Part shown: piece by piece, positions 16,880 to 31,795 of the stretch
Layout: each line of letters starts with the position of its first letter
Position numbering within the stretch: the stretch's first letter is position 1
Origin: Candidatus Saccharimonadales bacterium
GTDB taxonomy: Bacteria > Patescibacteriota > Saccharimonadia > Saccharimonadales > 2-12-FULL-41-12
Assembly: GCA_025451045.1 (NCBI GenBank)
Contig: JANWLD010000001.1
Span: 471,468 to 535,467 of the forward strand
Length of the DNA: 64,000 nucleotides
Direction: 5' to 3'
The notes under the pieces: model-generated
What the model was told of the DNA's origin: nothing
Database searches by the model: none
Seen by the model: the letters and a program-made list of their open reading frames with translations, nothing else
Made by a program: the position numbers and the translations under genes

Positions 16880-16998
16880 GTAATGACTGTTAATAAAACA
16901 TCGCGCATGGCGCGTCATGGAAGGTCGCCTCTAACAGGGGTAGAAACCACCGACCGCCATGATTTTATTGTCAGCTTAAATTAAAGGAGCAAGTAAGC

Positions 16999-17610
16999 TT
17001 GAAAGCACTCATTACTCGAAAAATCGGTATGACCAGTATTACTGCCGAAGATGGCGGCGTAGCCGCTGTTACTCTGCTTTCAGCATCTGATAATGTCGTA
17101 ACTCAGCTAAAAAATACCGAATCCGACGGCTATCAGGCGGTCCAGCTCGGCTTTGAAGAGTCAAAGAAGCTCAGCAAGTCCTTACTTGGCCATCTCAAGC
17201 CAGCGAAAATGAATGCCAAGGTGACGAGAGAAATCCGCGTGGATGAAATTCCTGAAGAATTGAAGGTCGGCGAGAAAATCAGCGCCGACCTTTTCAGTGT
17301 AGGAGACAAAGTCGACGCTGTCGGTACCTCCAAAGGCAAGGGTTTTGCCGGCACTATCAAGCGCCATAACTTCCACCGCGGCCGCAAGACACACGGTGGC
17401 CGCAGCTATCGACGGCCGGGTTCCATCGGTTCGATGTATCCGCAAAAGATTTTCAAAGGCAAGAAAATGTCCGGCCACATGGGGGATGAGCGCGTAACCG
17501 TAAAGAACCTTAACATTGCGCTGGTTGACAACGAGAATAATGTCATTGGTGTTTACGGAGCTATACCCGGTCCTAAAAAGGGCGTAGTAGTGCTGAAAGG
17601 AACTGCCTAA
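16999..17610 (+). CDS. rplC: 50S ribosomal protein L3
   Basis: TTG start with AAGGAG at 16984-16989. The translation is L3-like (GKGFAGTIKRHNF). Confidence 0.95.
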   Translation: MKALITRKIGMTSITAEDGGVAAVTLLSASDNVVTQLKNTESDGYQAVQLGFEESKKLSKSLLGHLKPAKMNAKVTREIRVDEIPEELKVGEKISADLFSVGDKVDAVGTSKGKGFAGTIKRHNFHRGRKTHGGRSYRRPGSIGSMYPQKIFKGKKMSGHMGDERVTVKNLNIALVDNENNVIGVYGAIPGPKKGVVVLKGTA

Positions 17611-17611
17611 A

Positions 17612-18271
17612 ATGGCCAGCGTTACGTCTTATACTGCCGCAGGAGTCAAGTCTGGTGCTAAAGCTGCCTTGGATAAGAATGTATTTGGCCTAGAAGTCAA
17701 AAACCACGACCTGCTTGGATATGCCTACCAGTCTTATCTGGCTAATGGTCGGGTAAATCTCGCCAAGACTAAAACCAGAGGTGAAGTTGTCGGTAGTACC
17801 AAAAAGCCATGGAAGCAAAAAGGTACGGGCCGGGCACGTTTTGGTTCCCGATATAACCCTATCTGGCGCGGCGGAGGTATCACTTTCGGCCCGACCGGCA
17901 ATGAGAATTACACCAAGAAACTTAACCTTAAAGCCAAGCGTCTGGCTACCAAACAGGCTTTGAGTTTGGCTGCTACCGAAGATAGAATCAAAATTATCGA
18001 CAAATTTGACGGCGGCGATGGCAAAGTCAAGAAAACGGCGGCCCTGCTGAGTAAGATTGAAGCTAAAGGCAAGGTGTTGTTGGTGGTGGATAGCAAAGAC
18101 AAAATGATAAATCGCTCTACCGGTAATATCGCGGGCGTTAAAGTAACAACTGGAAAATATTTGAACGTTTACGACATTCTTAATTCAGACAACGTAGTTA
18201 TTACCAAGAAATCACTTGATGCCATTTCTGAGTGGCTGGCTGACAAGACCAAGAAAGCGGAGGCCAAATGA
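17612..18271 (+). CDS. rplD: 50S ribosomal protein L4
   Basis: 219-aa L4-like translation (KPWKQKGTGRAR) in the conserved operon position. Confidence 0.95.
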   Translation: MASVTSYTAAGVKSGAKAALDKNVFGLEVKNHDLLGYAYQSYLANGRVNLAKTKTRGEVVGSTKKPWKQKGTGRARFGSRYNPIWRGGGITFGPTGNENYTKKLNLKAKRLATKQALSLAATEDRIKIIDKFDGGDGKVKKTAALLSKIEAKGKVLLVVDSKDKMINRSTGNIAGVKVTTGKYLNVYDILNSDNVVITKKSLDAISEWLADKTKKAEAK

Positions 18272-18807
18272 GCAAAATCATGGCCTTAAAACCGCGGATG
18301 AGTGAAAAGACCTATGCGCAAAGCCATGCGACTAACACCTATACTTTTGATGTCCCTAAAAACGCTAATAAGCTAGAGGTTAGCCGAGCAGTGGCTGTGC
18401 AGTTCAAAGTAACTGTTGAAGACGTGCGGATTGCTATCCTCAAGGGTAAGCAAGCCCGTTCTATAAGGATCGGCGGTACCCGTAAAGTTATTACCGGTAA
18501 ACGTCCTGATATCAAGAAAGCTTATGTCCGGATAAAAAACGGTGAAACAATTCCTATTTTTGCCAGTATCGACGAAGCCGAGGAAAAGGCCAAAAAAGCC
18601 GAGGCTAAAGCAGCCAAGAAAGATTCGTCTGATAAACCGGCTAAAACTCCTGATAAATCTGCTGCAAAGGCTAAAACAGCAGCCGCTAAGAAGCCTGAAA
18701 AAACGCCTAAGAAAAACACCAAGCCGACTAAGACTGTCGTTGAAGAAAAGAAAGAAGAAATCCTGAAGCCGAAATCCCGATTCAATTTCCTCCGGAGGGG
18801 TAAATAG
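18268..18807 (+). CDS. rplW: 50S ribosomal protein L23 with ~80-aa K/A/E-rich C-terminal extension
   Basis: The first ~97 aa are L23-like and in the conserved position. The tail from about 18559 is low-complexity (AEEKAKKAEAKAAKK...). Confidence 0.9.
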   Translation: MSKIMALKPRMSEKTYAQSHATNTYTFDVPKNANKLEVSRAVAVQFKVTVEDVRIAILKGKQARSIRIGGTRKVITGKRPDIKKAYVRIKNGETIPIFASIDEAEEKAKKAEAKAAKKDSSDKPAKTPDKSAAKAKTAAAKKPEKTPKKNTKPTKTVVEEKKEEILKPKSRFNFLRRGK

Positions 18808-18809
18808 AT

Positions 18810-19664
18810 ATGCCGATTAAGACTTACAAACCGACTACTCCCGGCCGACGAGGCATGACTACGCAGGATTTTGACACCATTACCGCTAAAAAGCCGATCA
18901 AGTCACTTTTGGCTGTCAAAAAGCAAAAAAGCGGGCGCAATAACCAGGGCCGGATAACTACCCGGCACAAAGGCGGCGGCGCTAAGAAATTTTATAGGAT
19001 TGTCAATTTTAAATTGGCTGAGGAAGCAAAACTAAAGGTTGAGCAGATTGAGTACGACCCGAACCGCAGCGCCCGTATAGCACGAGTAAAGGACGAAAAT
19101 GGCGCATACCATTACATCTTGGCTTCTTCCAAGATGAAGCCGGGTAAGACCATCAAAGTCGGCGAAGAAGCGCCGATTGACAGCGGTAACCGTTTGAAAC
19201 TGGCTAATATCCCGATGGGCAGCACTGTCCATGCTATTGAGCTTGAACCGGGCCGCGGTGCGCAACTCGTCAGAAGCGCTGGCGCCAGCGCCCAGCTGAT
19301 GGCCAAAGACAATGGACAGGCACAACTACGTTTGCCAAGCGGCGAAGTAAGATTGGTGAACCTTAACTGTATGGCTTCTATTGGTGTAATTGGCAATGAG
19401 CAGCACCAGAACATCAAGGTTGGCAAAGCTGGCCGTAGCCGGCACAAAGGGATCCGTCCAAGCGTACGAGGTGTAGTAATGAATGCGGCCGACCACCCGC
19501 ACGGTGGTGGTGACGGCGGGCGTCACGGTATTGGCGGCGGTAAGAACCACGGCGCAGCTCCGAAAACGCCTTGGGGCCAGAAAACTCTCGGCTTTAAGAC
19601 CAGGCGCCGAAAGAGCACAACCAAATACATTCTAAAGAGTCGCCATGCGAGCAAGAGGAGATAA
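18810..19664 (+). CDS. rplB: 50S ribosomal protein L2
   Basis: 284 aa with L2 hallmarks (VMNAADHPHGGGDG). Confidence 0.97.
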   Translation: MPIKTYKPTTPGRRGMTTQDFDTITAKKPIKSLLAVKKQKSGRNNQGRITTRHKGGGAKKFYRIVNFKLAEEAKLKVEQIEYDPNRSARIARVKDENGAYHYILASSKMKPGKTIKVGEEAPIDSGNRLKLANIPMGSTVHAIELEPGRGAQLVRSAGASAQLMAKDNGQAQLRLPSGEVRLVNLNCMASIGVIGNEQHQNIKVGKAGRSRHKGIRPSVRGVVMNAADHPHGGGDGGRHGIGGGKNHGAAPKTPWGQKTLGFKTRRRKSTTKYILKSRHASKRR

Positions 19665-19667
19665 ATT

Positions 19668-19961
19668 ATGAACGGTGACTATACTTCTATTCATGAAATT
19701 GCTAGGTTGCATACAGAACCTTTTGTAAAGGGATTGGATGCTGGTTTAGAAGCAATAAAGCAGCGTGAAGAATTAAGCAGTCCTATTACTTTTGATGATG
19801 TGTCAGCTAGGTCAGATGTTTTTCACATTGCTACTAATAGATTGGCAATGAGCGACGAAATACCCGAGTCTTACGGGCAGACTAAATACGAAATCATGGG
19901 TATGGGAGTTATATCTGCTCTTGAAGAAGCCGCTATAAGAAGTAAAGGAAATGTAGGGTAA
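19668..19961 (+). CDS. Hypothetical small acidic protein (97 aa), family C member 2, inserted between rplB and rpsS
   Basis: AGGAG lies 8 nt upstream, inside the rplB 3' end. The ATG is 3 nt after the rplB stop and the stop is 4 nt before the rpsS ATG. By eye it is a paralog of ORF 8064-8318. Confidence 0.55.
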
Positions 19962-19965
19962 AGAA

Positions 19966-20241
19966 ATGAGCAGAAGCTTAAAAAAAGGACCGTTTGTAGA
20001 CCCGAAACTTGCTAAGAAAGTTGATGCCTTGGGCAAGGAAGACCGAACCGTGATTAAGACCTGGGCGCGATATAGCGCTATTCCTCCGGAATTCGTTGGG
20101 CGAACCATCGCCGTACATAACGGGAAGACCCATGTACCGGTGTTTATTACTGAGAATATGGTTGGACACAAACTGGGTGAATTCGCTCCGACCCGCAAAT
20201 TCCGAAGCCACGGCGGTAAGCTCGCGAAAGGACAAAGTTAA
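19966..20241 (+). CDS. rpsS: 30S ribosomal protein S19
   Basis: 91-aa S19 translation ([11 protein letters not shown]...HNGK). Confidence 0.97.
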
Positions 20242-20243
20242 TC

Positions 20244-20624
20244 ATGGTGATTAAAGCCAGTGCTAAAGGAGTTCGTATGAGCCCGCGCAAAGTCGGGGTC
20301 GTTGCCAGCTTGGTTCGCGGCAGAACCGTTGCCGATGCCGTTACTATCCTGGAACACACACCAAGGCGTTCCAGCTTGCCAGTTAAGAAGTTGATTGAGA
20401 GTGCAAAAGCTAATGCGACCAATAACCATAATTTGCAAGCTGAAGGCTTGAAATTGACCAGTATCACGGTAACTCCCGGTCCCCGGATTAAACGAATAAG
20501 ACCGGCTGCCCATGGCCGAGCCTTGCCTTTTGAAAGAAAATCCAGCCATATATTCGTAGAAGTTGAAGGCCAAGAGAAACCAGTCAAAAAACCAGCCGAC
20601 AAAGCCAAGAAGGAGGCCAAATAA
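20244..20624 (+). CDS. rplV: 50S ribosomal protein L22
   Basis: 126-aa L22-like translation in the conserved position. Confidence 0.95.
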   Translation: MVIKASAKGVRMSPRKVGVVASLVRGRTVADAVTILEHTPRRSSLPVKKLIESAKANATNNHNLQAEGLKLTSITVTPGPRIKRIRPAAHGRALPFERKSSHIFVEVEGQEKPVKKPADKAKKEAK

Positions 20625-21253
20625 TGGGCCAGAAAGTAAATCCGATTAGTTTCCGTCTTCAGGTAAACAAACACTGGAAGAGCAAATGGTTCGCTAATAA
20701 AAAAGACTATGCGGAGTATCTGACACAAGATTTGACGGTCAGGCGGATGATAGTCAAAGAACTGGGCTCCCGCGCGGCTATAAACAAAGTTGACATTGAA
20801 CGCTCGCCTAACTTGGCCACTGTTACCATCACCACGGCCAAAGCCGGTGTTGTTATCGGCAGAGGCGGTACAGGCGCCCAAATACTAAAAGACCGAATTG
20901 AGAAAATCTACGGCGTACCGGTCAGGATTAACATTGAAGAAATCAAAAAAGCGGAACTTTACGCGAAGCTTGTCGCTGAGAATATTGCCCATCAGCTGGA
21001 AAGAAGAATTTCCTTCCGCCGGGCTATTAAACAATCTGCGGCCGCGACCATGCGGGCTGGAGCAAAGGGTGTACGTATCGAAGTAGCCGGCCGTCTTAAT
21101 GGCGCGGATATGAGCCGCCGCGAAAAAGTGGTTGAAGGCAGCGTGCCATTACACACTTTGCGTGCCGATATCGATTACTCGGGTGTCAGGGCCCGCACTA
21201 ATGCCGGTATCATTGGCGTGAAAGTTTGGATTTATAAAGGAGAGGTGCTCTGA
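20624..21253 (+). CDS. rpsC: 30S ribosomal protein S3
   Basis: 209-aa S3 translation (MGQKVNPISFRL..., a KH domain, GRLNGADMSR). Confidence 0.97.
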   Translation: MGQKVNPISFRLQVNKHWKSKWFANKKDYAEYLTQDLTVRRMIVKELGSRAAINKVDIERSPNLATVTITTAKAGVVIGRGGTGAQILKDRIEKIYGVPVRINIEEIKKAELYAKLVAENIAHQLERRISFRRAIKQSAAATMRAGAKGVRIEVAGRLNGADMSRREKVVEGSVPLHTLRADIDYSGVRARTNAGIIGVKVWIYKGEVL

Positions 21254-21378
21254 TGTTCCGCTTCACTACACACCAGGTTATAGGTTACAGGTTACAGGTT
21301 ATAGTTAAGACAAACCATCTAGCCCCTTGCACCTATAGCCTGATCCCTAAAGCGACCGAAGGGAGCTTTCCATGCTGA
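21253..21378 (+). repeat. Family A structured repeat, copy A1 (divergent), containing an open 41-codon mini-cistron
   Basis: The ATG overlaps the rpsC TGA (TGATG). The frame is open to a TGA at 21376-21378, overlapping the rplP ATG (21372) by 7 nt. Peptide: [41 protein letters not shown]. It is homologous to the copies at 24072, 25606 and 29631. Confidence 0.85.
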
Positions 21379-21788
21379 TTCCGAAACGCCAGAAGCACCG
21401 ACGAGTGATGAAAGGTCGTATCAAAGGCCCTGCTACCAGTGGCAATACCATTGCCTTTGGCAGCTATGCGCTGCAGTCTATGGGCCAAGACCGGGTTACC
21501 AGCCGCCAGATAGAATCAGCTCGCCAGGCGATGACCCGCTATATCAAACGAGGCGGTAAGATCTGGATAAGGATTTTCCCTCATACTCCTGTTACTAAAA
21601 AACCGCTGGGCCTTAAGATGGGCGGCGGCAAAGGCTCTCCTGAATACTTTGTAGCAAAGGTACGCAAAGGTACAGTATTGTTTGAAATGCAAGGCGTTTC
21701 CGAGGAAACAGCCCGCGAAGCCATGAGGCTGGCTGCCCACAAATTACCGATAAAGACCAGGTTTATTGTCAGAGAGGGCGAAACATGA
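21372..21788 (+). CDS. rplP: 50S ribosomal protein L16
   Basis: 138-aa L16 translation ([11 protein letters not shown]...). Confidence 0.97.
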
Positions 21789-21919
21789 ATCCCGTAGTAG
21801 ATCTCCTAGAACTGAAGTTGAGCAAGCTGTTTTTGTATGGCCGAGTGTCGGTACGTTATTCAGTTTTGTATATTTTTAATCTTCCTTATGGAATAACTAG
21901 GAGGCTCACTACAGGATGA
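21785..21919 (+). repeat. Family B structured repeat, copy B1, containing an open 44-codon mini-cistron
   Basis: ATGA overlap with the rplP stop and ATGA overlap with the rpmC start. Peptide: [44 protein letters not shown]. Terminal arms 21791-21809 and 21897-21915 are complementary, and the 3' arm contains the rpmC AGGAGG. Confidence 0.85.
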
Positions 21920-22116
21920 AAATAGCCGAGATACGCAAATTAGAGACCAATCAACTGATAAAAAGCGTGGATGAAGTAAGGGTTGAAATAGCCAAACTGC
22001 GACGCAGTATCCATATGGGTGAAACCAGCAATGTCCGGATGATACGCGCCAAGCGCAAACAGCTAGCTCGTATGCTAACCGTTATGAGCGAACAACTTGA
22101 GAAGGAGAAAGTATAA
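21916..22116 (+). CDS. rpmC: 50S ribosomal protein L29
   Basis: 66-aa L29-like translation in the conserved position. Confidence 0.93.
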   Translation: MKIAEIRKLETNQLIKSVDEVRVEIAKLRRSIHMGETSNVRMIRAKRKQLARMLTVMSEQLEKEKV

Positions 22117-22509
22117 ATGGGTAAGACATTAGTAGGGACTGTAAGTTCAGTCGCGCCGAATAAGACCATAGTAATTGCTGTTAGTACCCGAAAAACCCAT
22201 CCTATTTACAAAAAACAGTACAAAGTCACTACTAAATTCATGGCTCATGACGAAGAAAATTCGTGTAAAGTCGGTGACCTTGTCAGCATTGTCGAAACGC
22301 GGCCGATTTCTGCTAGAAAACGCTTCAAATTGGAAAAGATTTTGGAACACGCAAGGTTGAGCAAAGATGATTTGAAGGTTATGAATACGGACGAACCCGA
22401 AAAGAAAGCAGACAAGCCGTCAGAAAAAGTGGAGAAGAAGGATTCAACCGAAAAAACTGAGGATAAAGCGGATAAAAAGGCTTCATCGGACAAGGAAAAG
22501 GGCAAATGA
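22117..22509 (+). CDS. rpsQ: 30S ribosomal protein S17 with K/D/E-rich C-terminal tail
   Basis: S17 core (GTVSS...KTIVIAV...YKKQYKV), followed by a low-complexity tail of about 50 aa. Confidence 0.93.
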
Positions 22510-22874
22510 TACAACAGGAATCCCGAGTACTGGTTTGTGATAACAGCGGCGCGAAAGAACTATTGTGCATTCGTGTACTTGGTGGCACTAAACGCCGCTA
22601 TGCCCGAGTTGGCGATATTATCGTAGCCACCGTGAAACAGGCCAACCCCAGCGGTAATGTCAAGAAAAAGACGGTCGTGAGGGCGGTAATCGTGCGAACC
22701 AAACATTCTATCAAGCGTAAAGATGGCTCGACCATTTCTTTTGACGATAACGCCGCGGTGATAATAGGTGAAGATAGACTACCGAGAGCTACCCGTATCT
22801 TTGGTCCGGTACCGCGTGAACTGCGGGACCAAGGCTACAGCAAGATAATTAGCTTAGCGCCGGAGGTACTATGA
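22506..22874 (+). CDS. rplN: 50S ribosomal protein L14
   Basis: 122-aa L14 translation ([17 protein letters not shown]). Confidence 0.97.
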
Positions 22875-23215
22875 GTAAGCTAATAGCTAATAAGGTGCAT
22901 AAAATCAGGCTGAAAAAAGGCGACAAAGTAATAGTATTGTCCGGTAAGTACAAGAGCGAAACTGGTACTGTCCAAGCTACCCACCCCAAAGAGAACAAAG
23001 TAACCGTCGAAGGTATAAATATCGTCAAAAAAGCAGTCAAGCCAAACCGTCAGCATCCGCAGGGAGCTATAGTTGAAATCACCAAACCGCTGTGGGTTAG
23101 CAAAGTAGCGATTGTCGAACCAACTAGCAAGAAACCCAGCCGCATCGGCTATAAGCTGTCCAAAGCGGGCGAGAAAACCCGCGTGTTTAAACGAAACGGA
23201 AAGGAGATAAAGTAA
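22871..23215 (+). CDS. rplX: 50S ribosomal protein L24
   Basis: 114-aa protein with a KOW-containing L24-like translation ([14 protein letters not shown]). Confidence 0.93.
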
Positions 23216-23796
23216 TGGCTGAAGCAACTAATACTACCGCACAAGATACTGTCCGCTTGAAAAAACTTTATAACGAGCAGATCTCCTCTGAGCTAAAAGA
23301 AGAACTTGGCCTTAAAAACATCCACCAAGTACCAAAACTGGAGAAGATAGTAGTTAACATCGGGCTTGGCAAGGCCAAGGACGACAAACGGATGTTTGAA
23401 GTAGCTAACAATACGCTTTTGAAAGTTACCGGCCAAAAAGCCCAGGAAACTTACGCCCGGATGAGCATCGCGACATTCAAACTGCGCGAAGGTAACAAAG
23501 TCGGCCTTAAGGTAACTTTGCGCGGAGAGCGGATGTACGAATTTTTAGACCGGCTTATCAACATCGTGTTACCGAGACTGCGTGATTTCCATGGAGTCAG
23601 CAATAAATCTTTCGATGGCCAGGGCAATTACAGTATCGGAATCGTTGAACAATCGATTTTCCCGGAATTATCCTTTGAAGAAACATCGGTACCGCACGGT
23701 ATGCAGTTGATAATCGTCACCGATTCGCATAACGTAGAGCACAATAAACAGCTATTAATTAAATTCGGTATGCCTTTCGAGAAAGGGGACAAATAG
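23215..23796 (+). CDS. rplE: 50S ribosomal protein L5
   Basis: 193-aa L5-like translation in the conserved position. Confidence 0.95.
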   Translation: MAEATNTTAQDTVRLKKLYNEQISSELKEELGLKNIHQVPKLEKIVVNIGLGKAKDDKRMFEVANNTLLKVTGQKAQETYARMSIATFKLREGNKVGLKVTLRGERMYEFLDRLINIVLPRLRDFHGVSNKSFDGQGNYSIGIVEQSIFPELSFEETSVPHGMQLIIVTDSHNVEHNKQLLIKFGMPFEKGDK

Positions 23797-24066
23797 ATGG
23801 CTAAGAAATCAATCGTTAACAGGGACGAAAAACGTAAGAAGATGATAGCTAAATATGCCAAAAAACGAGCTGAAATGAAACAGGCTGGAGACCTTGTCGG
23901 CCTTCATCTTCTGCCTCGTAATTCATCCCCTACCCGGTTCAAGAACCGCTGTAGTGAGACCGGCCGCCCGCGAGCCTACATGCGCACCTTCGGCTTATCG
24001 AGGATTTCTTTTAGGGAACACGCGTCAAAAGGTGAAATACCCGGAGTAACGAAAGGAAGTTGGTAA
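23797..24066 (+). CDS. rpsN: 30S ribosomal protein S14 (long, Cys-less form)
   Basis: 89-aa S14 translation ending ...GVTKGSW, with no CxxC pairs. Confidence 0.95.
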
Positions 24067-24071
24067 TATAG

Positions 24072-24191
24072 ATGTTCCGCTTCACTACACATCAGGTTAC
24101 AGGTTATAGGTTACAGGTTATAGCCAAGATAAACTTTCTAACCCCTAGCCCCTATAACCTAACCCCTAAAGCGACAGAAAGGAGCACCTAA
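24072..24191 (+). repeat. Family A structured repeat, copy A2, containing an open 39-codon mini-cistron
   Basis: The ATG lies 5 nt after the rpsN TAA, and the TAA at 24189-24191 abuts the rpsH ATG. Peptide: MFRFTTHQVTGYRLQVIAKINFLTPSPYNLTPKATERST. There is a perfect 10-bp stem between 24101-24110 and 24151-24160. Confidence 0.88.
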
Positions 24192-24587
24192 ATGGTATCC
24201 ACAGATCCAGTTTCAGACATGCTGACCAGGCTGCGCAATGCGATTGCCGTTGGCAAGGCTGATGTCAGTTTGCCACATTCGAACATCAAGCAGTCGGTCG
24301 CTGAACTGCTAAAGAAAAGCGGCTTCATCGACGAAGTAAAAGTTGACGGAACCGGCATTGATAAGAAAGTGCTGATAAAAATTAATCCAAAGAGCGAAAA
24401 CGCGCGCATTACCGAGATAGCGCGACTGAGCCGTCCCGGCCGGCGCTTGTACGCCAAGGCCAAGGACATTCCAGTGGTCATGCAGGGCCGCGGACTGGTC
24501 ATAATTTCTACCTCCAAAGGTATTATGACCGGTGAAGAAGCTAAAAAAGCCAAAATCGGCGGAGAGTTAATCTGCAAGGTTTATTAA
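24192..24587 (+). CDS. rpsH: 30S ribosomal protein S8
   Basis: 131-aa S8 translation (DPVSDMLTRLRNA). Confidence 0.97.
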   Translation: MVSTDPVSDMLTRLRNAIAVGKADVSLPHSNIKQSVAELLKKSGFIDEVKVDGTGIDKKVLIKINPKSENARITEIARLSRPGRRLYAKAKDIPVVMQGRGLVIISTSKGIMTGEEAKKAKIGGELICKVY

Positions 24588-25120
24588 TGAGTAGAATTGG
24601 AAAACAACCAGTCAAAATACCGTCAGGCGTCACAGTGGATGTGAAAGACGATGCGATAACTGTCAACGGTTCAAAGGGTTCGTTGACCCAATTCACTATG
24701 CCCCAGGTTAAGGTAGTTCAGGAAAATGATGAACTGGTTTTTCAGCCGAACGATGACGAGGCTCGCTCGAAGCAGGGTTTGATGCGGACACTTGTCCAAA
24801 ATATGGTTACCGGTGTTAGCGAAGGTTTCGAAAAGAAGCTGGAAGTCAACGGCGTCGGCTTTAGGGTCAACCTTGCCGGCCAAGATCTGAAGATGTATCT
24901 TGGATATTCGCACGAGGTTGTCTACAAGATCCCCGAAGGCATCAATGTCAAAGTCGAACAGAACATCATAACCGTCAGTGGTATCAGCCGCCAACAGGTC
25001 GGACAGGTTGCCGCCGAAATACGGTCATTGAAAAAGCCAGAACCCTACAAAGGCAAAGGCATAAAGTACGTAGACGAACGGATTATCCGAAAAAGCGGTA
25101 AGTCAGGCAAGGAAAAATAA
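24587..25120 (+). CDS. rplF: 50S ribosomal protein L6
   Basis: 177-aa L6 translation (MSRIGKQPVKIPSGV). Confidence 0.97.
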   Translation: MSRIGKQPVKIPSGVTVDVKDDAITVNGSKGSLTQFTMPQVKVVQENDELVFQPNDDEARSKQGLMRTLVQNMVTGVSEGFEKKLEVNGVGFRVNLAGQDLKMYLGYSHEVVYKIPEGINVKVEQNIITVSGISRQQVGQVAAEIRSLKKPEPYKGKGIKYVDERIIRKSGKSGKEK

Positions 25121-25255
25121 ATGAGTCCCGTAGTAGATCTCCAAGAACATTCGTTGAATAAACTGTATTTAACTGATAAGCTGTCTATCCATAGTCCAGC
25201 TTTATTAATTTCTAATGCTCTTTGCGGAGCAACTTGGAGGCTCACTACGGGATGA
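25121..25255 (+). repeat. Family B structured repeat, copy B2, containing an open 44-codon mini-cistron
   Basis: The ATG directly follows the rplF TAA, and the TGA overlaps the rplR ATG (ATGA). Peptide: MSPVVDLQEHSLNKLYLTDKLSIHSPALLISNALCGATWRLTTG. Terminal arms 25126-25145 and 25233-25252 are complementary. Confidence 0.85.
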
Positions 25256-25605
25256 GTAGATTAGTGTCAAAGCGTAATAACATAACCAGGAGAAAGAACC
25301 GGGTCAGAACCATGATCCGGACTAATTCAGGGCATCCCCGCTTATCCGTTAATATCAGTAACCGGCATATCCTAGCCCAGGTGATAGATGACAGCGCCCA
25401 TAAGACATTGATATCAGTCTCAACCGAAAAGCAGGCCTATAAAGGCAATATGACTGAAAAAGCCGGCTTGGTGGGCAAGGAAATTGCTGAAAAAGCCAAA
25501 GCCAAGAAAATCAAACAAGTTGTTTTAGACAGGGGCTCTAGACTGTATCATGGCCGTATCAAAGTCCTGGCAGACGCGGCCCGCGAGGAAGGATTGGTAA
25601 TATAG
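25252..25605 (+). CDS. rplR: 50S ribosomal protein L18
   Basis: The L18 translation starts MSRLVSKRNNITRRKNR. The ATG at 25252 is preferred over the track start at 25222 because it sits 11 nt after GGAGG, matching the homologous B1/rpmC junction. Confidence 0.93.
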   Translation: MSRLVSKRNNITRRKNRVRTMIRTNSGHPRLSVNISNRHILAQVIDDSAHKTLISVSTEKQAYKGNMTEKAGLVGKEIAEKAKAKKIKQVVLDRGSRLYHGRIKVLADAAREEGLVI

Positions 25606-25725
25606 ATGTTCCGCTTCACTACACATCAGGTTACAGGTTATAGGTTACAGGTTATAGCCAAGATAAACTTTCTAACCCCTAGCCCCTATAACCTAACCCC
25701 TAAAGCGAAAGAATGGAGCGCATAA
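25606..25725 (+). repeat. Family A structured repeat, copy A3, containing an open 39-codon mini-cistron
   Basis: The ATG directly follows the rplR TAG, and the TAA overlaps the rpsE ATG (TAATG). Peptide: MFRFTTHQVTGYRLQVIAKINFLTPSPYNLTPKAKEWSA. A 115-nt stretch is identical to A2. Confidence 0.88.
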
Positions 25726-26330
25726 TGGCTGAGATGAACAGAAGAAAAGATATTAAGCCGCTAGAGCTGGAAGAGAAGCAATTTGAAGAAAGGGTCGTGC
25801 ATATCGACCGCGTGGCCCGCGTGGTCAAAGGCGGACGGCGCTTCCGGTTCCGTGCCCTCGTGGTGGTAGGTGACAAGAAGGGACGGGTAGGCGTAGCTAC
25901 CGCCAAAGGCGCGGATGTTACCGCGGCCGTAGCCAAAGCAGTCGACGTGGCCAAGAAGAACCTGACTACTTTAGTACTTTATAAAGGCACTCTGCCGCAT
26001 GAAGTTCAGGCCAAAGTTGGCGGTTCGAACATTCTGTTGAAGCCTGCCAGCCCCGGAACCGGTATTATCGCCGGCGGCGTGGTACGTACGTTACTTGAAG
26101 TCGGCGGTGTCAGCAATGCCCTCTCCAAATCTCTCGGTTCGAGTAACAAGGTCAATACCGCCTATGCGACGCTGAAAGCGCTCAAAAGCGTAGTGCCAGC
26201 AGACAAGTGGATTACCAGAATCCAGACAAAAGCCAATAGTCCCAAGCTAAAAGCTAAAATAGAAAATCCGGAAAAGAAGACAGAGAAGAAAGTAACTGCC
26301 AAACCGAAAAAAACGGAAAGTAAGAAGTGA
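25725..26330 (+). CDS. rpsE: 30S ribosomal protein S5 with K-rich C-terminal tail
   Basis: S5 translation (VVHIDRVARVVKGGRRFRFRALVVVGD). The ATG at 25725 is preferred over the in-frame ATG at 25713, by analogy with the other family A junctions where GGAG precedes the start. Confidence 0.93.
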   Translation: MAEMNRRKDIKPLELEEKQFEERVVHIDRVARVVKGGRRFRFRALVVVGDKKGRVGVATAKGADVTAAVAKAVDVAKKNLTTLVLYKGTLPHEVQAKVGGSNILLKPASPGTGIIAGGVVRTLLEVGGVSNALSKSLGSSNKVNTAYATLKALKSVVPADKWITRIQTKANSPKLKAKIENPEKKTEKKVTAKPKKTESKK

Positions 26331-26803
26331 AATACAACCAGCTTAAGACCACCAGCAATAAACAACCAAAACGTTCTGGCCGCGGTATTGCTGCCGGTCG
26401 TGGCAAGACAGCCGGTCGTGGCACCAAAGGCCAGGGCGCACGCAAAAGCGGAGGTGTCCGACCAGGCTTCGAAGGCGGCCAGATGCCTCTTTATATGAGA
26501 CTTCCCAAGCTACGCGGCTTCAAATCGCACCGTCCGGCTACAGCCGTGGTTTATACCGGACAGCTTGAAAGTCTTGGCAAAGCCAAAGTGGACAGTAAAG
26601 TCTTAGCAGAAGCCGGTTTGATTGAAAATCCTTACCAAAAAGTAAAACTTGTAGTTAACGGTAAGATTTCCAAAAAAGTCGAAGTAAAGCTGTTTTCCGC
26701 CAGTAAGACGGCAGTTGATATGGTCAAGAAAGCCGGTGGCAGTTTCGCTCCAACCGAACAGCTGAAACGCCCAAAGAAACCTACAAAAGAGCCTGCCAAG
26801 TAG
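26327..26803 (+). CDS. rplO: 50S ribosomal protein L15
   Basis: GTG start overlapping the rpsE stop (GTGA). The translation is L15-like (RSGRGIAAGRGKTAGRGTKGQ). No L30 gene lies between S5 and L15. Confidence 0.95.
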   Translation: MKYNQLKTTSNKQPKRSGRGIAAGRGKTAGRGTKGQGARKSGGVRPGFEGGQMPLYMRLPKLRGFKSHRPATAVVYTGQLESLGKAKVDSKVLAEAGLIENPYQKVKLVVNGKISKKVEVKLFSASKTAVDMVKKAGGSFAPTEQLKRPKKPTKEPAK

Positions 26804-26850
26804 CCTACCGTCGGATAGGCTAATACTGTATACTAGTAACCAAATCATTT

Positions 26851-28320
26851 ATGAATTGGAAACTGATTTGGAAATCACTGGCAGATATCGACATGCGCAA
26901 AAAAGTCTTTGCGGTGCTCGGAATTATTGTCGTTTTTCGAATATTGGCCCACATTCCTATTCCGATAAGTAACCCTCAGGACGTACGCCAATTTCTTGAT
27001 TCGCTGTTCACGTCGGAGAATACGCCGCAGTTTTTAAGTTTCTTGAACGCCTTATCTGGCGGCGCGTTAGCGAAATTTTCCATCATGCTGGTAGGCTTGG
27101 GGCCCTATATTAATGCCAGTATCATTATGCAACTGTTGACCCGCGCCATCCCAAGGCTTGAAACCCTTAACAAAGAAGGCGAATACGGCCGCAAGAAAAT
27201 AAACCAAATGACCCGTATGCTGACCTTGCCGCTGGCAATAATCCAGTCCATCGGCGCAATTTACATCGTCAAACAGCAGGCCAGCCAGGTTTCGGGACTG
27301 GGTGATATCACAGCCAATGCCTCTCCTATGCAATGGGTGCTGATGGTGGCGGCGCTGACAGGCGGTTCTATGATTCTGATGTGGCTGGGCGAGCTGATTA
27401 CAGAGCAAAATATCGGCAATGGAATTTCTCTTTTAATTACGGTAGGCATAGTCAGCACTCTGCCGGGTCTGGCCGCGGGATTAGTTGGCGGTATTTTCAA
27501 TGGGGATAATAAATATGCCTTGCTAGGCCATCAGATACCGATTGATTACCACGCCTTAAAAATATTCGCTATCGTCACGGCCTTTGTAATACTTACCATC
27601 GTGATTGTCGTGAAGCTTAACGAGGCAGCGCGCAAGCTTACGGTGCATTATGCCAAACGGGTTCAGGGTAACCGGACTTATGGCGGCGTGACGACGGTGT
27701 TGCCGGTCAAGCTGATTGGCGCTGGTGTTGTGCCAATTATTTTCGCGGTGGCTTTTTTAAGCGTTCCAAGCTTTGTCGGGCAGATTTTTTCTTCCAGTCA
27801 TTCAGAAAATCTACAGCATATAGGGGCTACTCTCCTCCAGTGGTTCCAAACGCCGTCCGCCCAGACCTTTGCTAGCGGGGATTGGCATTCATATATCTAT
27901 CCTGCAACTTATTTTATCCTGGTTTTCCTCTTTACCTTCTTCTATACCAATATAACTTTCAATGCCAAGGAAATCGCCGAAAATCTGCAAAAACAAGGAG
28001 GTTTCATAGCCGATATACGTTCTGGCCCTCAGACCGAGAAATATCTCTCTCAGGTTGTAAATCGCCTGACGCTGTTTGGCGGTATAGCCATTGGTGTTTT
28101 GGCGGTAGTACCAATTGCCGCTGAGATATTCTTTGGCAACAACCTCGCCATCGGCGGTACCAGCGTATTGATTTTGGTATCAGTATCTCTTGAAACACTG
28201 CGGAAGGTCGAATCACAGGCACTGATGGTCACTTATAGCCAATATGACGGCGGTGACTTCTTCCAGCAAGTAGAGACGGAAGAAAAGAAAAAACGCCGCT
28301 TTTCCCTAAGAAGAAAATAA
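26851..28320 (+). CDS. secY: Preprotein translocase subunit SecY
   Basis: 489-aa polytopic membrane protein with SecY-like sequence (SGGALAKFSIMLVGLGPYINASIIMQLL). Confidence 0.96.
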   Translation: MNWKLIWKSLADIDMRKKVFAVLGIIVVFRILAHIPIPISNPQDVRQFLDSLFTSENTPQFLSFLNALSGGALAKFSIMLVGLGPYINASIIMQLLTRAIPRLETLNKEGEYGRKKINQMTRMLTLPLAIIQSIGAIYIVKQQASQVSGLGDITANASPMQWVLMVAALTGGSMILMWLGELITEQNIGNGISLLITVGIVSTLPGLAAGLVGGIFNGDNKYALLGHQIPIDYHALKIFAIVTAFVILTIVIVVKLNEAARKLTVHYAKRVQGNRTYGGVTTVLPVKLIGAGVVPIIFAVAFLSVPSFVGQIFSSSHSENLQHIGATLLQWFQTPSAQTFASGDWHSYIYPATYFILVFLFTFFYTNITFNAKEIAENLQKQGGFIADIRSGPQTEKYLSQVVNRLTLFGGIAIGVLAVVPIAAEIFFGNNLAIGGTSVLILVSVSLETLRKVESQALMVTYSQYDGGDFFQQVETEEKKKRRFSLRRK

Positions 28321-28333
28321 ACTGTAAAAAATG

Positions 28334-28362
28334 TTGCAATTCTGACCGGTGTTTGATATGAT
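28334..28362 (+). promoter_or_regulatory. Candidate promoter for infA-rpmJ-rpsM...
   Basis: TTGCAA (28334-28339), a 17-nt spacer, then TATGAT (28357-28362), with TG at 28354-28355 (extended -10 type). Confidence 0.4.
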
Positions 28363-28382
28363 GTGTGTCTAGTTATAGATTT

Positions 28383-28604
28383 ATGGCCAAAAACAAGGAA
28401 GTTATTGAACTCACCGGAAAGATAGTAGAAACCTTGCCCGGAACACAGTTCAAGGTTGAGCTTGAAAATGGCCATCAAATTATAGCTCACGTCGCCGGCA
28501 AGATGAGGAAGAATTACATCCGAATCGTCCCCGGAGACAGCGTTACGGTCGAGTTGACCCCTTACGATCTTACTAAGGGCAGAATCACCTACCGCAAAAC
28601 TTAA
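28383..28604 (+). CDS. infA: Translation initiation factor IF-1
   Basis: [31 protein letters not shown]... is canonical IF-1. The ATG at 28383 is preferred over the track start at 28365. Confidence 0.93.
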
Positions 28605-28670
28605 ATAATTTAAGCAGTGTGTTCGCTTTCGCTATACAGCGAACAGCGAATCCGTACGAAGGAACTTATA

Positions 28671-28787
28671 TTGAAGGTACGTGCTAGCGTTAAGAAAATC
28701 AGCCCCGACGACAAAATTGTCCGTCGCAAGGGGCGTTTATACGTTATTAATAAATTTAAGCCAAAGCATAAACAGAGGCAAGGCTAA
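28671..28787 (+). CDS. rpmJ: 50S ribosomal protein L36 (Cys-less variant); absent from the ORF track because it is under 60 aa
   Basis: TTG start with GAAGGA upstream. The translation is [38 protein letters not shown]. The TAA overlaps the rpsM ATG (TAATG). Confidence 0.9.
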
Positions 28788-29173
28788 TGGCTAGAATCGC
28801 CGGAGTCACCATCCCTAACGAAAAACAAGTTCAGATTGGCTTGCAGTATATTTACGGTATAGGCAAGAAGCATGCCGCGGATATCCTAGCTAAAGCCAAG
28901 ATTGATCCGACTGTACGAGTAAAGAATCTAACCGACAGCGAAGTCGGCAAAATTTCAGAGGTTATTGGCAATGATTACGTGGTTGAAGGCGAGCTTCAGC
29001 GCATAGTCACCGGCAATATCAAGCGCCTGAAAGACATCAACGCCTATCGTGGCCTGCGTCACAAAGCCAACCTGCCTAGCCGAGGGCAAAGGACTAAGAC
29101 TAACGCTAGGACCAGACGAGGCAAAAAAGTGACCGTCGGCGGCACGGCGAAGAAAGTAGCGGCAAAGACTTAA
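28787..29173 (+). CDS. rpsM: 30S ribosomal protein S13
   Basis: 128-aa S13 translation ([15 protein letters not shown]). Confidence 0.97.
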   Translation: MARIAGVTIPNEKQVQIGLQYIYGIGKKHAADILAKAKIDPTVRVKNLTDSEVGKISEVIGNDYVVEGELQRIVTGNIKRLKDINAYRGLRHKANLPSRGQRTKTNARTRRGKKVTVGGTAKKVAAKT

Positions 29174-29177
29174 GATT

Positions 29178-29630
29178 ATGGCAGAAACTGATACCAAAAC
29201 TAAGGAAGAAGTAACTACCGAAACTACGGACGTTGAAGCTAAACCGGCGGCCAAGCCGAAGAAGAAAAAGGTTAAACGCAATGTACCGCTGGGCCAAGTT
29301 CATGTACTGGCGACCTTCAATAACACCATCGTTACAGTTACTGACTCAAACGGCGGCGTGTTGACAAATTCTAGTGCCGGCGCTTGTGGCTTTCGCGGCA
29401 GCAAAAAAGGCACGGCTTATGCCGCGCAGGTTGCTGCTGAAAAAGCAGTTGAAGAAGCAAAACAACGTTTTGGACTTAGCAAAGTACATGTCTTTATCAA
29501 AGGTATCGGTCTGGGGCGCGAGGCAGCTGTCAGAGTTTTAGGTTCAGCTAACATCGCCGTCGAGTCCATACAGGACGTTACCGGCGTGCCGCATGGCGGC
29601 GTACGGCCGAGAAAGGCAAGAAGAGTCTAG
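29178..29630 (+). CDS. rpsK: 30S ribosomal protein S11 with ~30-aa charged N-terminal extension
   Basis: S11 core (GQVHVLATFNNTIVTVTD...GFRGSKKGT). Confidence 0.95.
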   Translation: MAETDTKTKEEVTTETTDVEAKPAAKPKKKKVKRNVPLGQVHVLATFNNTIVTVTDSNGGVLTNSSAGACGFRGSKKGTAYAAQVAAEKAVEEAKQRFGLSKVHVFIKGIGLGREAAVRVLGSANIAVESIQDVTGVPHGGVRPRKARRV

Positions 29631-29753
29631 ATGATGTTCCGCTTCACTACACATCAGGTTACAGGTTATAGGTTACAGGTTATAGCTAAGACAAACCCTC
29701 TAACCCCTAGCCCCTATAACCTAACCCCTAAAGCGACCGGAGGGAGCTTCTGA
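29631..29753 (+). repeat. Family A structured repeat, copy A4, containing an open 40-codon mini-cistron
   Basis: ATGATG directly follows the rpsK TAG, and the TGA overlaps the rpsD ATG (TGATG). Peptide: MMFRFTTHQVTGYRLQVIAKTNPLTPSPYNLTPKATGGSF. Confidence 0.88.
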
Positions 29754-30367
29754 TGGCTAGAGATACTCATTCGATAGTCAAGATGAGCCGCCGCGAAGGC
29801 TATGCATTGCATCCGAAGGCTCACAAGGCTTTGGTAAAGCGTTCTACTCCCCCGGGCCAACAAACCAGGGGTTACCGGAGCAAACCCAGCCAGTATTCTC
29901 TGCAGCTTCGTGAAAAACAGAAAGTGAAACGGCTCTACGGGTTGCTGGAAAAGCAGTTCAGAAACCTGATGAAAGAAGCATCCCGCAGCCAGGGCCAATC
30001 CGGCGAGGTACTGCTTAGACTGCTTGAACAACGGGCTGATAATGCTGTTTATAGGGCCGGATTTGCACCGAGCCGCCGAGCAGCCCGGCAGCTGGTCACC
30101 CACGGACATTTCATGCTTAACGGCACCCGCGTGGATGTACCTTCCATAAGGTTGAAAAGCGGCGATGTGCTGGTGCTGCGCGATAAATCGAAAAAATCTG
30201 AGTATTTCAAACAGTTTGATGATGTTAGCCCAGCGCCCGCCGAGTTTCCCGGCTGGCTCAAGGCCGATAGGAAGAAGTTTGAGATTAAAATAACCGGCGT
30301 ACCGGCTCGCGAGGAAGCCGAACCGGATATAGACGAGAAATTAATAGTCGAGTTTTACTCACGCTAA
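29753..30367 (+). CDS. rpsD: 30S ribosomal protein S4
   Basis: 204-aa S4 translation with an S4 domain (RADNAVYRAGFAPSRRAARQLVTHGH). Confidence 0.96.
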   Translation: MARDTHSIVKMSRREGYALHPKAHKALVKRSTPPGQQTRGYRSKPSQYSLQLREKQKVKRLYGLLEKQFRNLMKEASRSQGQSGEVLLRLLEQRADNAVYRAGFAPSRRAARQLVTHGHFMLNGTRVDVPSIRLKSGDVLVLRDKSKKSEYFKQFDDVSPAPAEFPGWLKADRKKFEIKITGVPAREEAEPDIDEKLIVEFYSR

Positions 30368-30386
30368 GAAGGAGATAACAGAACAA

Positions 30387-31334
30387 ATGTCAAAATCAAT
30401 ACACGTACCAGGAGTAGTCAAGACCGAGGAACATGGCAATAATCAGGCTACTTTCGTCATAGAACCACTACACAGTGGGTATGGCATGACCTTGGGTAAT
30501 AGCTTGAGACGCGTCTTGTTGTCTTCTATCGCCGGAGCGGCCGTTACGGCCTTTAAGGCCGAAGGTGCCAGCCATGAATTCACAACTTTGCCGGGAGTCA
30601 AAGAAGACATTGTAGAGATAATCTTAAACCTTAAAGGCGTGCGTTTCCGCGTTTTCTCCGATGAACCGCAGACTATCCGTTTGAGTAAGAAAGGCACTGG
30701 CACAGTCACTGCCAAAGATATCGACATCAATGCTGATGTAGAAGTTGTCAACAAAGACCAAGTTATTGCGCATGTTGATAGTGCTTCGTCCAGCATCAAC
30801 ATGGATATCATAGTCGAAAAAGGCCGTGGTTACCGTGCGATTGACGAATCCAGTAGCAAGAAAGTCATTTCGGACATGATCGCTATAGATTCAATTTTCA
30901 GTCCGGTCTTGAGGGTGCGTTACAAGGTGGAAAACACCCGTGTCGGCCAGATGACTGACCTCGACAAGCTTATTATAACTATCGAGACCGACGGCACGAT
31001 TACGCCGCGCGATGCTTTTGAAGAGGCTTCTGCTATTTTGGTAAACCAATATACTGCGCTAGCCGGACAGACTACCGTTGAACAGGGTACTCCACTAAGT
31101 GCAGGCACAGAAACTGCTGTCGAACCCGGCTCGTCCGATGATGCGCCTGCTCTGATGACTTCTATTGAAGATTTGAACCTGTCGGCTCGAACCACTAACG
31201 CTCTGGTTAATAATGACATCCACACGCTTAAGGATTTGTTTGCGCTTAGCGACATTGAGCTGAAAGAGCTAAAGGGCTTTGGCAGCAAAGCACTTGATGA
31301 AGTCAAAGAGAAAATGGCGGAGATGGAATTTTAA
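30387..31334 (+). CDS. rpoA: DNA-directed RNA polymerase subunit alpha
   Basis: 315-aa RpoA-like translation (GMTLGNSLRRVLLSS; a C-terminal domain with LSARTTNAL). Confidence 0.96.
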   Translation: MSKSIHVPGVVKTEEHGNNQATFVIEPLHSGYGMTLGNSLRRVLLSSIAGAAVTAFKAEGASHEFTTLPGVKEDIVEIILNLKGVRFRVFSDEPQTIRLSKKGTGTVTAKDIDINADVEVVNKDQVIAHVDSASSSINMDIIVEKGRGYRAIDESSSKKVISDMIAIDSIFSPVLRVRYKVENTRVGQMTDLDKLIITIETDGTITPRDAFEEASAILVNQYTALAGQTTVEQGTPLSAGTETAVEPGSSDDAPALMTSIEDLNLSARTTNALVNNDIHTLKDLFALSDIELKELKGFGSKALDEVKEKMAEMEF

Positions 31335-31337
31335 CAA

Positions 31338-31793
31338 ATGCATAGACACGGATACAAAGGTCGGAAATTCGGTCGGGAACGCGACCAGAGACAGGCGCTA
31401 ATGAAGAGCCTGGCCGATTCTTTGATTATCCATGAATCCATAGAAACGACTGTTGCCAAAGCTAAAGAGCTGGTTCCGTATACGGAAAAATTGATAACCA
31501 AGGCCAAAAAGGGCGACTTACACAGCCGTCGGCTGATAATCACTAAACTTCAGACTATTGGATCCGCCCATAAGCTGGTTGATGACATCGCCCCAAAGTT
31601 ATCAGGCCGCACCAGCGGACATTTGAAAATATCAAAGACAGTATCCCGGCGCGGTGATAATGCCCAGTTGGCAAAAGTGAGTTTTGTGGATGACTTGAAA
31701 GCCGTAAAGACATTACCAAAGCCATCCGTAACTCCTAAGAAAAAAACACCTGCCAAAACAGCGTCAAAGAAAACGGGAGCTAGCAAGAAATAA
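31338..31793 (+). CDS. rplQ: 50S ribosomal protein L17 with K/P-rich C-terminal tail
   Basis: L17 translation (MHRHGYKGRKFGRERDQRQALMKSLA). Confidence 0.95.
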   Translation: MHRHGYKGRKFGRERDQRQALMKSLADSLIIHESIETTVAKAKELVPYTEKLITKAKKGDLHSRRLIITKLQTIGSAHKLVDDIAPKLSGRTSGHLKISKTVSRRGDNAQLAKVSFVDDLKAVKTLPKPSVTPKKKTPAKTASKKTGASKK

Positions 31794-31795
31794 TT

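Follow-up and report, generated by a model that had tools for sequence, protein, structure and literature searches.

How can a repeat of about 120 nt be accommodated at the junctions of an essential operon in which consecutive genes are translationally coupled? The question is raised by a 64,000-nt stretch from the genome of a Candidatus Saccharimonadales bacterium (assembly GCA_025451045.1, contig JANWLD010000001.1, positions 471,468–535,467 of the forward strand; hereafter, the window, with all coordinates counted from its first base). Its tuf-S10-spc-alpha ribosomal-protein superoperon occupies 15.2–32.6 kb on the + strand, and the S10-spc-alpha operon within it harbors six repeat cassettes (four of family A and two of family B) and one ORFan gene. 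The original prediction for this locus, made on the family A copy between S14 and S8, proposed selection on a hairpin, with the reading frame merely kept open. Based on the comparisons described below, we consider it likely that family A is a non-autonomous, copy-spreading element that colonizes the stop/start junctions of coupled Saccharimonadales operons and acts as a ‘ribosome relay’.

Family A copies and their junctions

The window contains four + strand copies of family A, each about 120 nt long and composed of tandem YAGGTTA heptads followed by an imperfect complementary arm, at the S3|L16, S14|S8, L18|S5, and S11|S4 junctions. Copy A1 (21253–21371) lies between S3 (stop TGA 21251–21253) and L16 (ATG 21372), and its 41-codon open reading frame (ORF; 21253–21378) starts in overlap with the S3 stop (TGATG) and stops inside the ATGCTGA of L16. 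Copy A2 (24067–24191) separates S14 (stop 24064–24066) from S8 (ATG 24192); its ORF (24072–24191) has 39 codons, translates as MFRFTTHQVTGYRLQVIAKINFLTPSPYNLTPKATERST, and ends with a TAA that abuts the S8 ATG. A3 (25606–25724; ORF 25606–25725) is found between L18 (stop TAG 25603–25605) and S5 (native ATG 25725), with a TAATG overlap at the S5 start, and A4 (29631–29752; ORF 29631–29753) between S11 (stop 29628–29630) and S4 (ATG 29753), with a TGATG overlap at the S4 start. Compared to A2, identity is 97% for A3, 86% for A4, and 77% for A1. The homology runs from the ATG to GGAGC, a few bases before the ATG of the next gene. The 16-mer AGGTTACAGGTTATAG has 13 matches where 0.35 were expected. 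In A2, the Shine-Dalgarno site GGAG (24181–24184), 7 nt before the S8 ATG, is supplied by the element and is preceded by the conserved 3′ box AAAGCGAC.

Beyond the window, searches recovered the family A flanks at two loci of Ca. Saccharimonadales SPRUCE 438 and in six metagenome contigs, and nowhere else; these contigs carry similar-looking neighbor genes and are putatively Saccharimonadales-like. Including the window, this amounts to 13 copies in eight assemblies (three-digit L numbers designate the retrieved loci). The junctions outside the window are L24|L5, L23|L2, L22|S3, L18|S5, S3|L16, atpD|atpC (two copies, apparently orthologous), rfbD|rfbA, and one more. About 12 of the 120 matches listed from the metagenome search with the pattern CATCAGGTTACAGGTTA were informative, and the others mostly belonged to an unrelated, very common gut-bacterial gene. 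A search of viral contigs with the 5′ arm pattern gave no match.

All 13 copies share one architecture: the ATG overlaps the upstream stop or lies 0–5 nt from it, the ORF spans 38–41 codons, and its stop falls on the downstream start. A GGAG precedes the downstream start in every copy except L126, at atpD|atpC. The 5′ junctions take the forms TGATG, TAG-ATG, and ATGA, and the 3′ junctions the forms TAATG, TGATG, ATGA, TAGTG, and TAA-ATG. Each junction holds a single unit, with no tandem arrays of units, and the copies are sense-oriented between co-oriented genes of one operon (13/13 in family A, 2/2 in family B, and 7/7 among the other fillers described below).

Frame 0 is free of stops in 13/13 copies, as the original prediction had proposed, compared to 41 and 36 stops in the other two frames (77 in total, 1–5 per frame per copy); the eight stop triplets of A2 are all out of frame. 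Indels preserve the frame. For example, +1 and +2 insertions compensate each other in L180, where the C-terminal peptide is altered and the ORF still ends on TAATG. Under random substitution at the observed divergences, the probability that all six independent contrasts stay open is 0.005. The openness of the frame is selected, that is, in-frame stops are selected against. The peptide is a different matter. Mean pairwise differences at codon positions 1, 2, and 3 are 0.28, 0.29, and 0.32 among the 13 copies, and the ratio of non-synonymous to synonymous differences (pN/pS) ranges from 0.62 to 1.53 in 11 comparisons. With a pN/pS near 1 and equal variability at all three codon positions, the peptide sequence is not selected; only the open frame and the coupling are. 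This upholds the view that the peptide is not the conserved unit, and the ratio well below 1 across copies that would have indicated a protein-level constraint was not found. The hand count of 4 synonymous and 10 non-synonymous codon changes between A1 and A2 was too low (6.0 and 13.0 by the Nei–Gojobori method, pN/pS 0.66), and the conclusion drawn from it is the same.

These data make it very improbable that family A is a genuine multi-copy gene for a small protein (39–41 aa) with a functional product. A frame that is always open, a plausible start, and a HQVTGYRLQV motif that recurs in the translations would fit such a gene, but the motif is the mere translation of DNA heptads that also occur untranslated in many phyla, and the frame switch in the C-terminal part of L180 leaves the end on the downstream start intact. 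A search with the 40-aa A4 product recovered no word-sharing homologue among 5.8 billion clusters of predicted proteins. No called gene on record corresponds to the A2 ORF.

To compare filled and empty sites, we used eight related operons (L241–L252), fetched via S8 homologues with 81–89% identity; the proteins next closest to the S8 of the window are 65–89% identical to it and annotated as Saccharimonadales or Patescibacteria. No family A or B copy was present in these eight operons. The six junctions that are occupied in the window (S3|L16, S14|S8, L18|S5, S11|S4, L16|L29, and L6|L18) show gaps of 0–26 nt, mostly 0–1 nt, in L241, L242, and L244, the three operons compared base by base, and the gene tables of the related operons give the same tight spacing. 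Because the same junctions are empty in related operons, the window copies are insertions, recent and lineage-specific, placed exactly at stop/start junctions, and not ancient regulators. The suggestion of a REP/MITE-like element (repetitive extragenic palindromic sequence or miniature inverted-repeat transposable element) adapted to coupled translation fits both the empty sites of the relatives and an ORF that spans the distance from upstream stop to downstream start.

The flanks also reveal where A2 came from. A2 and A3 share an identical 12 nt upstream (TTGGTAATATAG), and A2 contains TATAG, 5 nt whose only native place is the L18 terminus: in relatives, S14 closes with ...TTGGTAA immediately ahead of S8, and L18 natively closes with ...TTGGTAATATA(G/A). 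Because of these identical flanks and the L18-derived TATAG, A2 was copied from the A3 locus, carrying 5 nt of L18 flank, with the crossover in chance microhomology. The two flanks suggest that the family spreads by microhomology copying; alternatively, a transposase may act in trans.

The heptad hairpin and the reading frame

The hairpin of A2 consists of a 5′ arm (24093–24123) of tandem CAGGTTA and TAGGTTA heptads, an apical loop (24124–24137), and a 3′ arm (24138–24169) of degenerate complementary heptads (CTAACCC, CTAGCCC, and CTATAAC), all on the + strand. Tandem Repeats Finder detected a period of 7 in the 5′ arm (CAGGTTA, 4.0 copies, 90% matches, 24093–24120) and a degenerate period-7 array in the 3′ arm (CTAACCC, 72% matches, 24138–24169). 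The same pair of arrays is present at A1, A3, and A4, with 4.0 copies and 90% matches for the 5′ array in all four, so that the heptad-built 5′ half and complementary 3′ half described in the original prediction hold for every copy in the window. The coordinates and strings that it gave for A2 are exact: 24101–24110 (AGGTTATAGG) is the perfect reverse complement of 24151–24160 (CCTATAACCT), and this 10-bp stem is extended by GGTT (24095–24098) with AACC (24161–24164) and by GGTTA (24116–24120) with TAACC (24139–24143). Because of the heptad periodicity, an alternative stem register exists, which an inverted-repeat search placed at 24115–24123 with 24152–24160. As had been stated, A2, A3, and A4 have identical arms, and all four core differences between A4 and A2 lie in the loop; outside the core, the 3′ tails of A4 and A2 differ. 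Likewise, A1 has a permuted heptad order, with A-to-G transitions in three of its six 3′-arm changes. A promoter/terminator scan found no site within any copy, and no T-run follows the hairpin.

Each family A core folds as a hairpin on the + strand (z −1.6 to −5.7). For the window copies, better folding than in dinucleotide shuffles was confirmed for the core (z −2.4 to −3.4) and was marginal for the whole ORF-length segment (z −1.25 to −2.23). The substitution pattern, taken earlier as the sign of selection on the hairpin, did not bear this out once 13 copies were aligned. The covariation score was 0.080 compared to 0.071 in shuffles (90/500 as high), with double, compensated changes at 2 of 21 pairs, likewise no more than in the controls, a comparison whose power is limited by 13 copies with periodic arms; this is the lack of covariation support that had been named in advance as speaking against a selected structure. 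The RNAalifold consensus retains invariant AGG:CCU triplets alone (−3.7 kcal/mol). In an explicit 21-pair model, 74% of cells pair, versus 26–44% in slid controls.

The old atpD|atpC copy L126 separates hairpin from frame: its 3′ arm was replaced by (CTGTTCA)4 and the hairpin was mostly lost (z −1.6), with the ORF and the overlap kept. This loss is one of the reasons why we regard as unlikely a hairpin that benefits the host at the RNA level, as an RNase III or RNase E site, a 3′-exonuclease barrier, or a protein-binding site that segments or stabilizes the long mRNA, the ORF being the price of placement. Better folding than shuffles in every copy would be expected of such a structure, as would the enrichment of copies in the ribosomal-protein cluster and the recurrence, in several genomes, of hairpin-forming fillers with unrelated heptads at ribosomal-protein junctions; however, heptads that differ between families leave no common protein-binding motif, and the element is missing from relatives with S8 81–89% identical and differs in position between genomes. 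Matched changes in the two arms, few and lineage-specific (C-G to U-A at columns 46/79; CGAGG/CCUCG in L180), also point to structure, set against a covariation that does not exceed shuffles and the low consensus energy. Rfam covariance models gave no match at E ≤ 1 across window positions 15000–33000.

Reading frame and hairpin interfere with one another at this period. The exact complement of (AGGTTAC)n is (GTAACCT)n, which places a TAA every 7 nt and hits all three frames within 21 nt; because the 7-nt TAA period cycles through all frames, a perfect hairpin of at least three heptads is unreadable. When the real 3′ arm is swapped for the exact complement, 1–2 in-frame stops arise in every copy. 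The stop triplets in the 3′ arm of A2 lie at ORF positions 68 (frame 1), 75 (frame 2), 89 (frame 1), and 96 (frame 2), and position 82, the sole would-be in-frame stop, reads TAT, in the same heptad that forms the perfect 10-bp stem. Stop avoidance explains part of the arm mismatches, namely which of them occur and not that they exist, because the untranslated heptad hairpins of other phyla also have imperfect arms. T-variant heptads are never found at the sole position that would put TAG in frame, in agreement with stop avoidance (five placements, not significant). The minus strand folds better than the plus strand (z −3.3 for the ORF-length segment), because A-to-G changes that keep a wobble pair would create TGA or TAG, and the allowed changes give A.C on the plus and G.U on the minus strand. 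A function of the minus strand was dropped as a candidate, since stop avoidance explains its better folding.

Predicted pairing of the Shine-Dalgarno site varies among the cassettes. The site pairs with the 5′ end in A1–A3 and L131a and partly in L113 and L180. In L188 it is part of a local stem, and in L126 a strong stem, likewise local, lies immediately ahead of the downstream start. In A4, L060, L147, and L149, it is largely unpaired. A conserved outer helix masking the family A site was rejected, being limited to a subset of the copies and missing from the alifold consensus. These predictions bear on the idea that the cassette is kept as a coupling tuner, which would set the translation ratio of neighboring cistrons by masking the Shine-Dalgarno site until the mini-ORF is translated. 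The masked sites and local stems, together with the terminal stem of family B, would suit such a role. The chances of this explanation are nevertheless slim, given the variable outer helix and the unpaired sites; moreover, the cell requires ribosomal proteins in a 1:1 ratio, and direct overlaps suffice in relatives.

The heptads themselves extend far beyond family A. An exact 24-mer of the family A 5′ arm occurs in at least 120 stretches in species genomes from many phyla, with matches in Cyanobacteria, Bacteroidota, Acidobacteriota, Chloroflexota, Patescibacteria, Rickettsiales, and Vibrio, often in plain heptad arrays and often with an imperfect complementary arm after it. YAGGTTA-type heptad hairpins with an imperfect arm were seen in Rickettsiales, Yanofskybacteria, Nomurabacteria, Nostoc, Acidobacteriota, Bacteroidales, and others (loci L008, L011, L014, L031, L042, L059, L061, L084, L087, L088, L094, L096, L111, L114, L116, and others). 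Among such generic hairpins from other phyla, 22/35 are closed in all three frames. Heptad hairpins are a generic, widespread motif, in line with published evidence that heptameric repeats are over-represented in bacteria (PMC4692102; PMC4679880).

Family B, other fillers, and neighboring features

The same design recurs in sequences unrelated to family A. Family B (131 nt, + strand) is represented by B1 (21785–21915), between L16 and L29, with a 44-codon ORF, ATGA on either side, and a 21-nt terminal inverted repeat, and by B2 (25121–25251), between L6 and L18 (native ATG 25252). The 44-codon frame 0 contains no stop in either copy, compared to 7/2 and 6/5 in the other frames, and the B1/B2 differences by codon position are 10/18/12. 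The ATGA on both sides is the native ATGA overlap, duplicated. The terminal inverted repeats (20–21 nt, 76–80% matching) bring a CUCC at the 5′ end into pairing with the GGAGG at the 3′ end, the site that serves the resident gene. No family B copy was found in any fetched locus.

Seven further fillers, 113–229 nt long, occur in the SPRUCE-438-type operon and contig L131 (L113, − strand, oriented 2722–3872; L170, 7166–7280 and 9426–9575; L131, 2188–2319 and 4274–4400; all Saccharimonadales-like contigs). They occupy the S3|L16, L5|S14, S14|S8, S8|L6, L23|L2, L3|L4, and L2|S19 junctions, and their heptads are ATTTACA/TGGTAAA, CTTTTTA, ACAGTTY, CATCAGT, or none. All seven contain an ORF of 37–76 codons from the upstream stop to the downstream start, most have a GGAG-like Shine-Dalgarno site, and two have a 5′ or 3′ module in common with family A. 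This stop-to-start rule is followed by 22/22 intra-operon fillers (13 of family A, two of family B, and the seven others).

Other parts of the window show features of their own. The ORFan gene is a 97-aa ORF (19668–19961) between L2 and S19, 3–4 nt from either neighbor, where relatives have 3–10 nt; it has no Pfam match, and its sole database match is itself. Comparison with an 84-aa ORF (8064–8318) between S7 (stop 8061) and fusA (8342) revealed no similarity. The 85-nt rpoC|S12 spacer contains a 26-codon ORF (7092–7172) that begins 3 nt past the rpoC stop and ends 2 nt short of the S12 start, and a CCUCC...GAGGAG stem surrounds the Shine-Dalgarno site of S12. The spacer is a further candidate for the relay type. 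The S10|L3 gap is 262 nt long (16737–16998) and includes a promoter-like site (16810–16839), at a variable spot where relatives have an extra gene of 217–606 aa or a shorter gap. L30 is missing from the superoperon, as is usual among bacteria of the candidate phyla radiation (CPR). The 179-aa L23 (18268–18807) has Lys/Ala-rich repeats, compared to 124 aa in several relatives and up to 171 aa in one. The L1 ORF (47487–48596) encodes 369 aa with the L1 domain confined to residues 172–360, and its N-terminal extension carries tandem 14- and 20-nt repeats (47552–47589 and 47725–47765). Two apparent gene fusions were also noted: thymidylate kinase with ThyX (766 aa, 49577–51877) and, inside a minus-strand shikimate-pathway block, 5-enolpyruvylshikimate-3-phosphate synthase with shikimate kinase (565 aa, 13305–15002, − strand).

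Mode of action, known analogues, and significance

If family A is a spreading element that relays ribosomes, its ATG would take over the old start and Shine-Dalgarno site of the resident gene and capture ribosomes finishing the upstream gene. The frame of about 39 codons, stop-free and otherwise free to vary, would be read through the heptad hairpin, and the 3′ box (AAGCGAC...GGAG) would provide a fresh Shine-Dalgarno site, with the stop of the element overlapping or abutting the resident ATG. Ribosomes translating the mini-cistron would melt the hairpin and, in A1–A3, L131a, and family B, also the helix that masks the new Shine-Dalgarno site. They would then terminate at the resident ATG behind the fresh GGAG and re-initiate there, and a 120-nt insertion in an essential coupled operon would, as far as the sequence indicates, be nearly neutral for expression. 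The inserted RNA, including the C-rich 3′ arm, would stay covered by ribosomes, which may protect it from Rho or nucleases. The hairpin and heptads are probably the selfish or mechanistic part of the element and not a host function, with the heptads perhaps reflecting a tendency to form heptamer slippage arrays and the hairpin perhaps serving as a copying structure.

Several points weigh against this interpretation. Translation of the mini-ORF and re-initiation are predictions from sequence features. The copies outside the window were found by exact 5′-arm patterns, which inflates the apparent conservation of this arm. Hairpin potential is clear in all copies but L126 (z −2.2 to −5.7) and persists between families whose heptads differ; it could reflect structural selection that is invisible to column-wise covariation in periodic arms; the imperfect arms of untranslated hairpins, which restrict the role of stop avoidance, belong here as well. 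Hallmarks of transposition are sparse: in place of clear terminal inverted repeats, family A shows a single sub-terminal pair of 5 bp (CGCTT/AAGCG, 77% paired), and its sole candidate for a target-site duplication is the ATG on both sides, which selection for start codons could equally explain. No transposase, REP-associated tyrosine transposase (RAYT), or related autonomous element was found among 20 non-ribosomal ORFs in the 64-kb window. Finally, the insertions are unevenly distributed. Within the window, 6/22 tight junctions inside the ribosomal-protein cluster are occupied, compared to 0/~16 outside it (Fisher p = 0.027), and ribosomal-protein operons hold 9/12 independent insertions overall. 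This enrichment could be due to target preference, local copying, or host benefit.

The closest known analogue of family A is the mycobacterial interspersed repetitive unit (MIRU), the description of which reportedly goes back to Supply et al. 1997. Both are short repeats (40–100 bp in MIRUs) placed between genes of the same operon in gene direction, with filled and empty sites in relatives. In MIRUs, which are likewise intercistronic, a small ORF overlaps the neighboring genes. Their insertion is believed to take place at start codons, and the ORF and the gene are coupled at −4 nt spacing (PMC12548453; PMC3184786). As we propose for family A, start-codon insertion and a coupled ORF have been taken to explain why MIRUs have little effect on expression (PMC12548453; PMC3184786). 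In contrast to MIRUs, family A resides in Saccharimonadales and not in Mycobacterium, forms single units and no variable-number tandem repeat (VNTR) arrays, has a heptad-hairpin core and its own Shine-Dalgarno site, and is concentrated in the S10-spc-alpha ribosomal-protein operon; the distinction is drawn by taxon and organization.

Rickettsia palindromic elements, reportedly described by Ogata et al. 2000, are palindromic mobile repeats that survive in translated sequence by virtue of an open frame, but they are fused in frame into host proteins, whereas family A is a separate mini-cistron between proteins. REP sequences and bacterial interspersed mosaic elements also differ, with an imperfect palindrome of 20–40 nt after GTAG and a RAYT gene; the family A hairpin is about 75 nt long, built from heptads, and without a 5′ GTAG, and no RAYT was found in the window. 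MITEs and co-transcribed repeats (Correia/NEMIS, ERIC/IRU, RUP, and BOX) resemble family A as non-autonomous, multi-copy sequences of about 100–150 nt with a long RNA stem-loop, some of which carry ORFs, ribosome-binding sites, or start codons (e.g., Neisseria REP2) and show filled and empty sites (PMC3184786). Classic MITEs, however, are not complete cistrons with start, ORF, Shine-Dalgarno site, and stop fitted to both neighbors. The lack of clear terminal inverted repeats and target-site duplication would set family A apart from MITEs, to which family B is closer in having both, although the ATG flanking family A and the ATGA flanking family B could equally reflect the requirement that either end carry a start codon.

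Heptamer repeats, such as the short tandemly repeated repetitive (STRR) sequences of heterocystous cyanobacteria, TAACTGA (PMC4679880), and GGGAATC or GGGGAYT (PMC4692102), share tandem 7-nt units with family A. They are over-represented in intergenic regions of several phyla, sometimes as inverted pairs, often near start codons, and vary among close relatives (PMC4679880; PMC4692102). Family A counts as STRR-type (at least 3–4 tandem 7-nt units in non-protein-coding DNA), although its array sits inside an ORF cassette; the arrays named above have not been reported to come with a start codon, a stop-free frame, a Shine-Dalgarno site, and an overlapping stop. Synthetic bicistronic designs likewise use a short leader ORF with a Shine-Dalgarno site and an overlapping stop/start to deliver ribosomes and remove inhibitory structure (PMC12548453), with the difference that these are engineered and family A is natural and mobile. 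Among the papers searched, none described such elements in Saccharibacteria. By taxon and organization, family A cannot be called a MIRU, nor is it a clean MITE or a REP.

Few stretches of bacterial genomes are as conserved and as densely packed as the S10-spc-alpha operon, which here lies in a minimal CPR genome and has been invaded nonetheless. Selfish DNA can enter even such an essential operon provided that it mimics a coupled cistron. This extends the MIRU principle to a distant phylum and provides a natural counterpart of engineered bicistronic designs. The element also represents a clean natural trade-off between nucleic-acid structure and reading frame, as a perfect hairpin and an open frame are incompatible at a 7-nt period. 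In practical terms, the 120-nt ‘gaps’ and their ORFs are unannotated and can mislead the prediction of operons, ribosome-binding sites, and small proteins, and the cassettes are polymorphic markers within phylogenomic marker loci. Related genomes contain comparable numbers of fillers with different heptads. More tentatively, and as a conjecture that we would not yet favor, Saccharimonadales and perhaps other CPR bacteria might host diverse, modular, mobile ‘ribosome-relay cassettes’ that target the junctions of their most highly expressed operons. The heptad hairpin would then be a recognition or copying structure (for a single-strand transposase or for template switching at microhomologies), and some copies may have been co-opted to process or stabilize ribosomal-protein mRNA. 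If true, mobile relay cassettes would represent a new lifestyle for selfish DNA of minimal genomes, one that is neither that of MITEs nor that of REPs.

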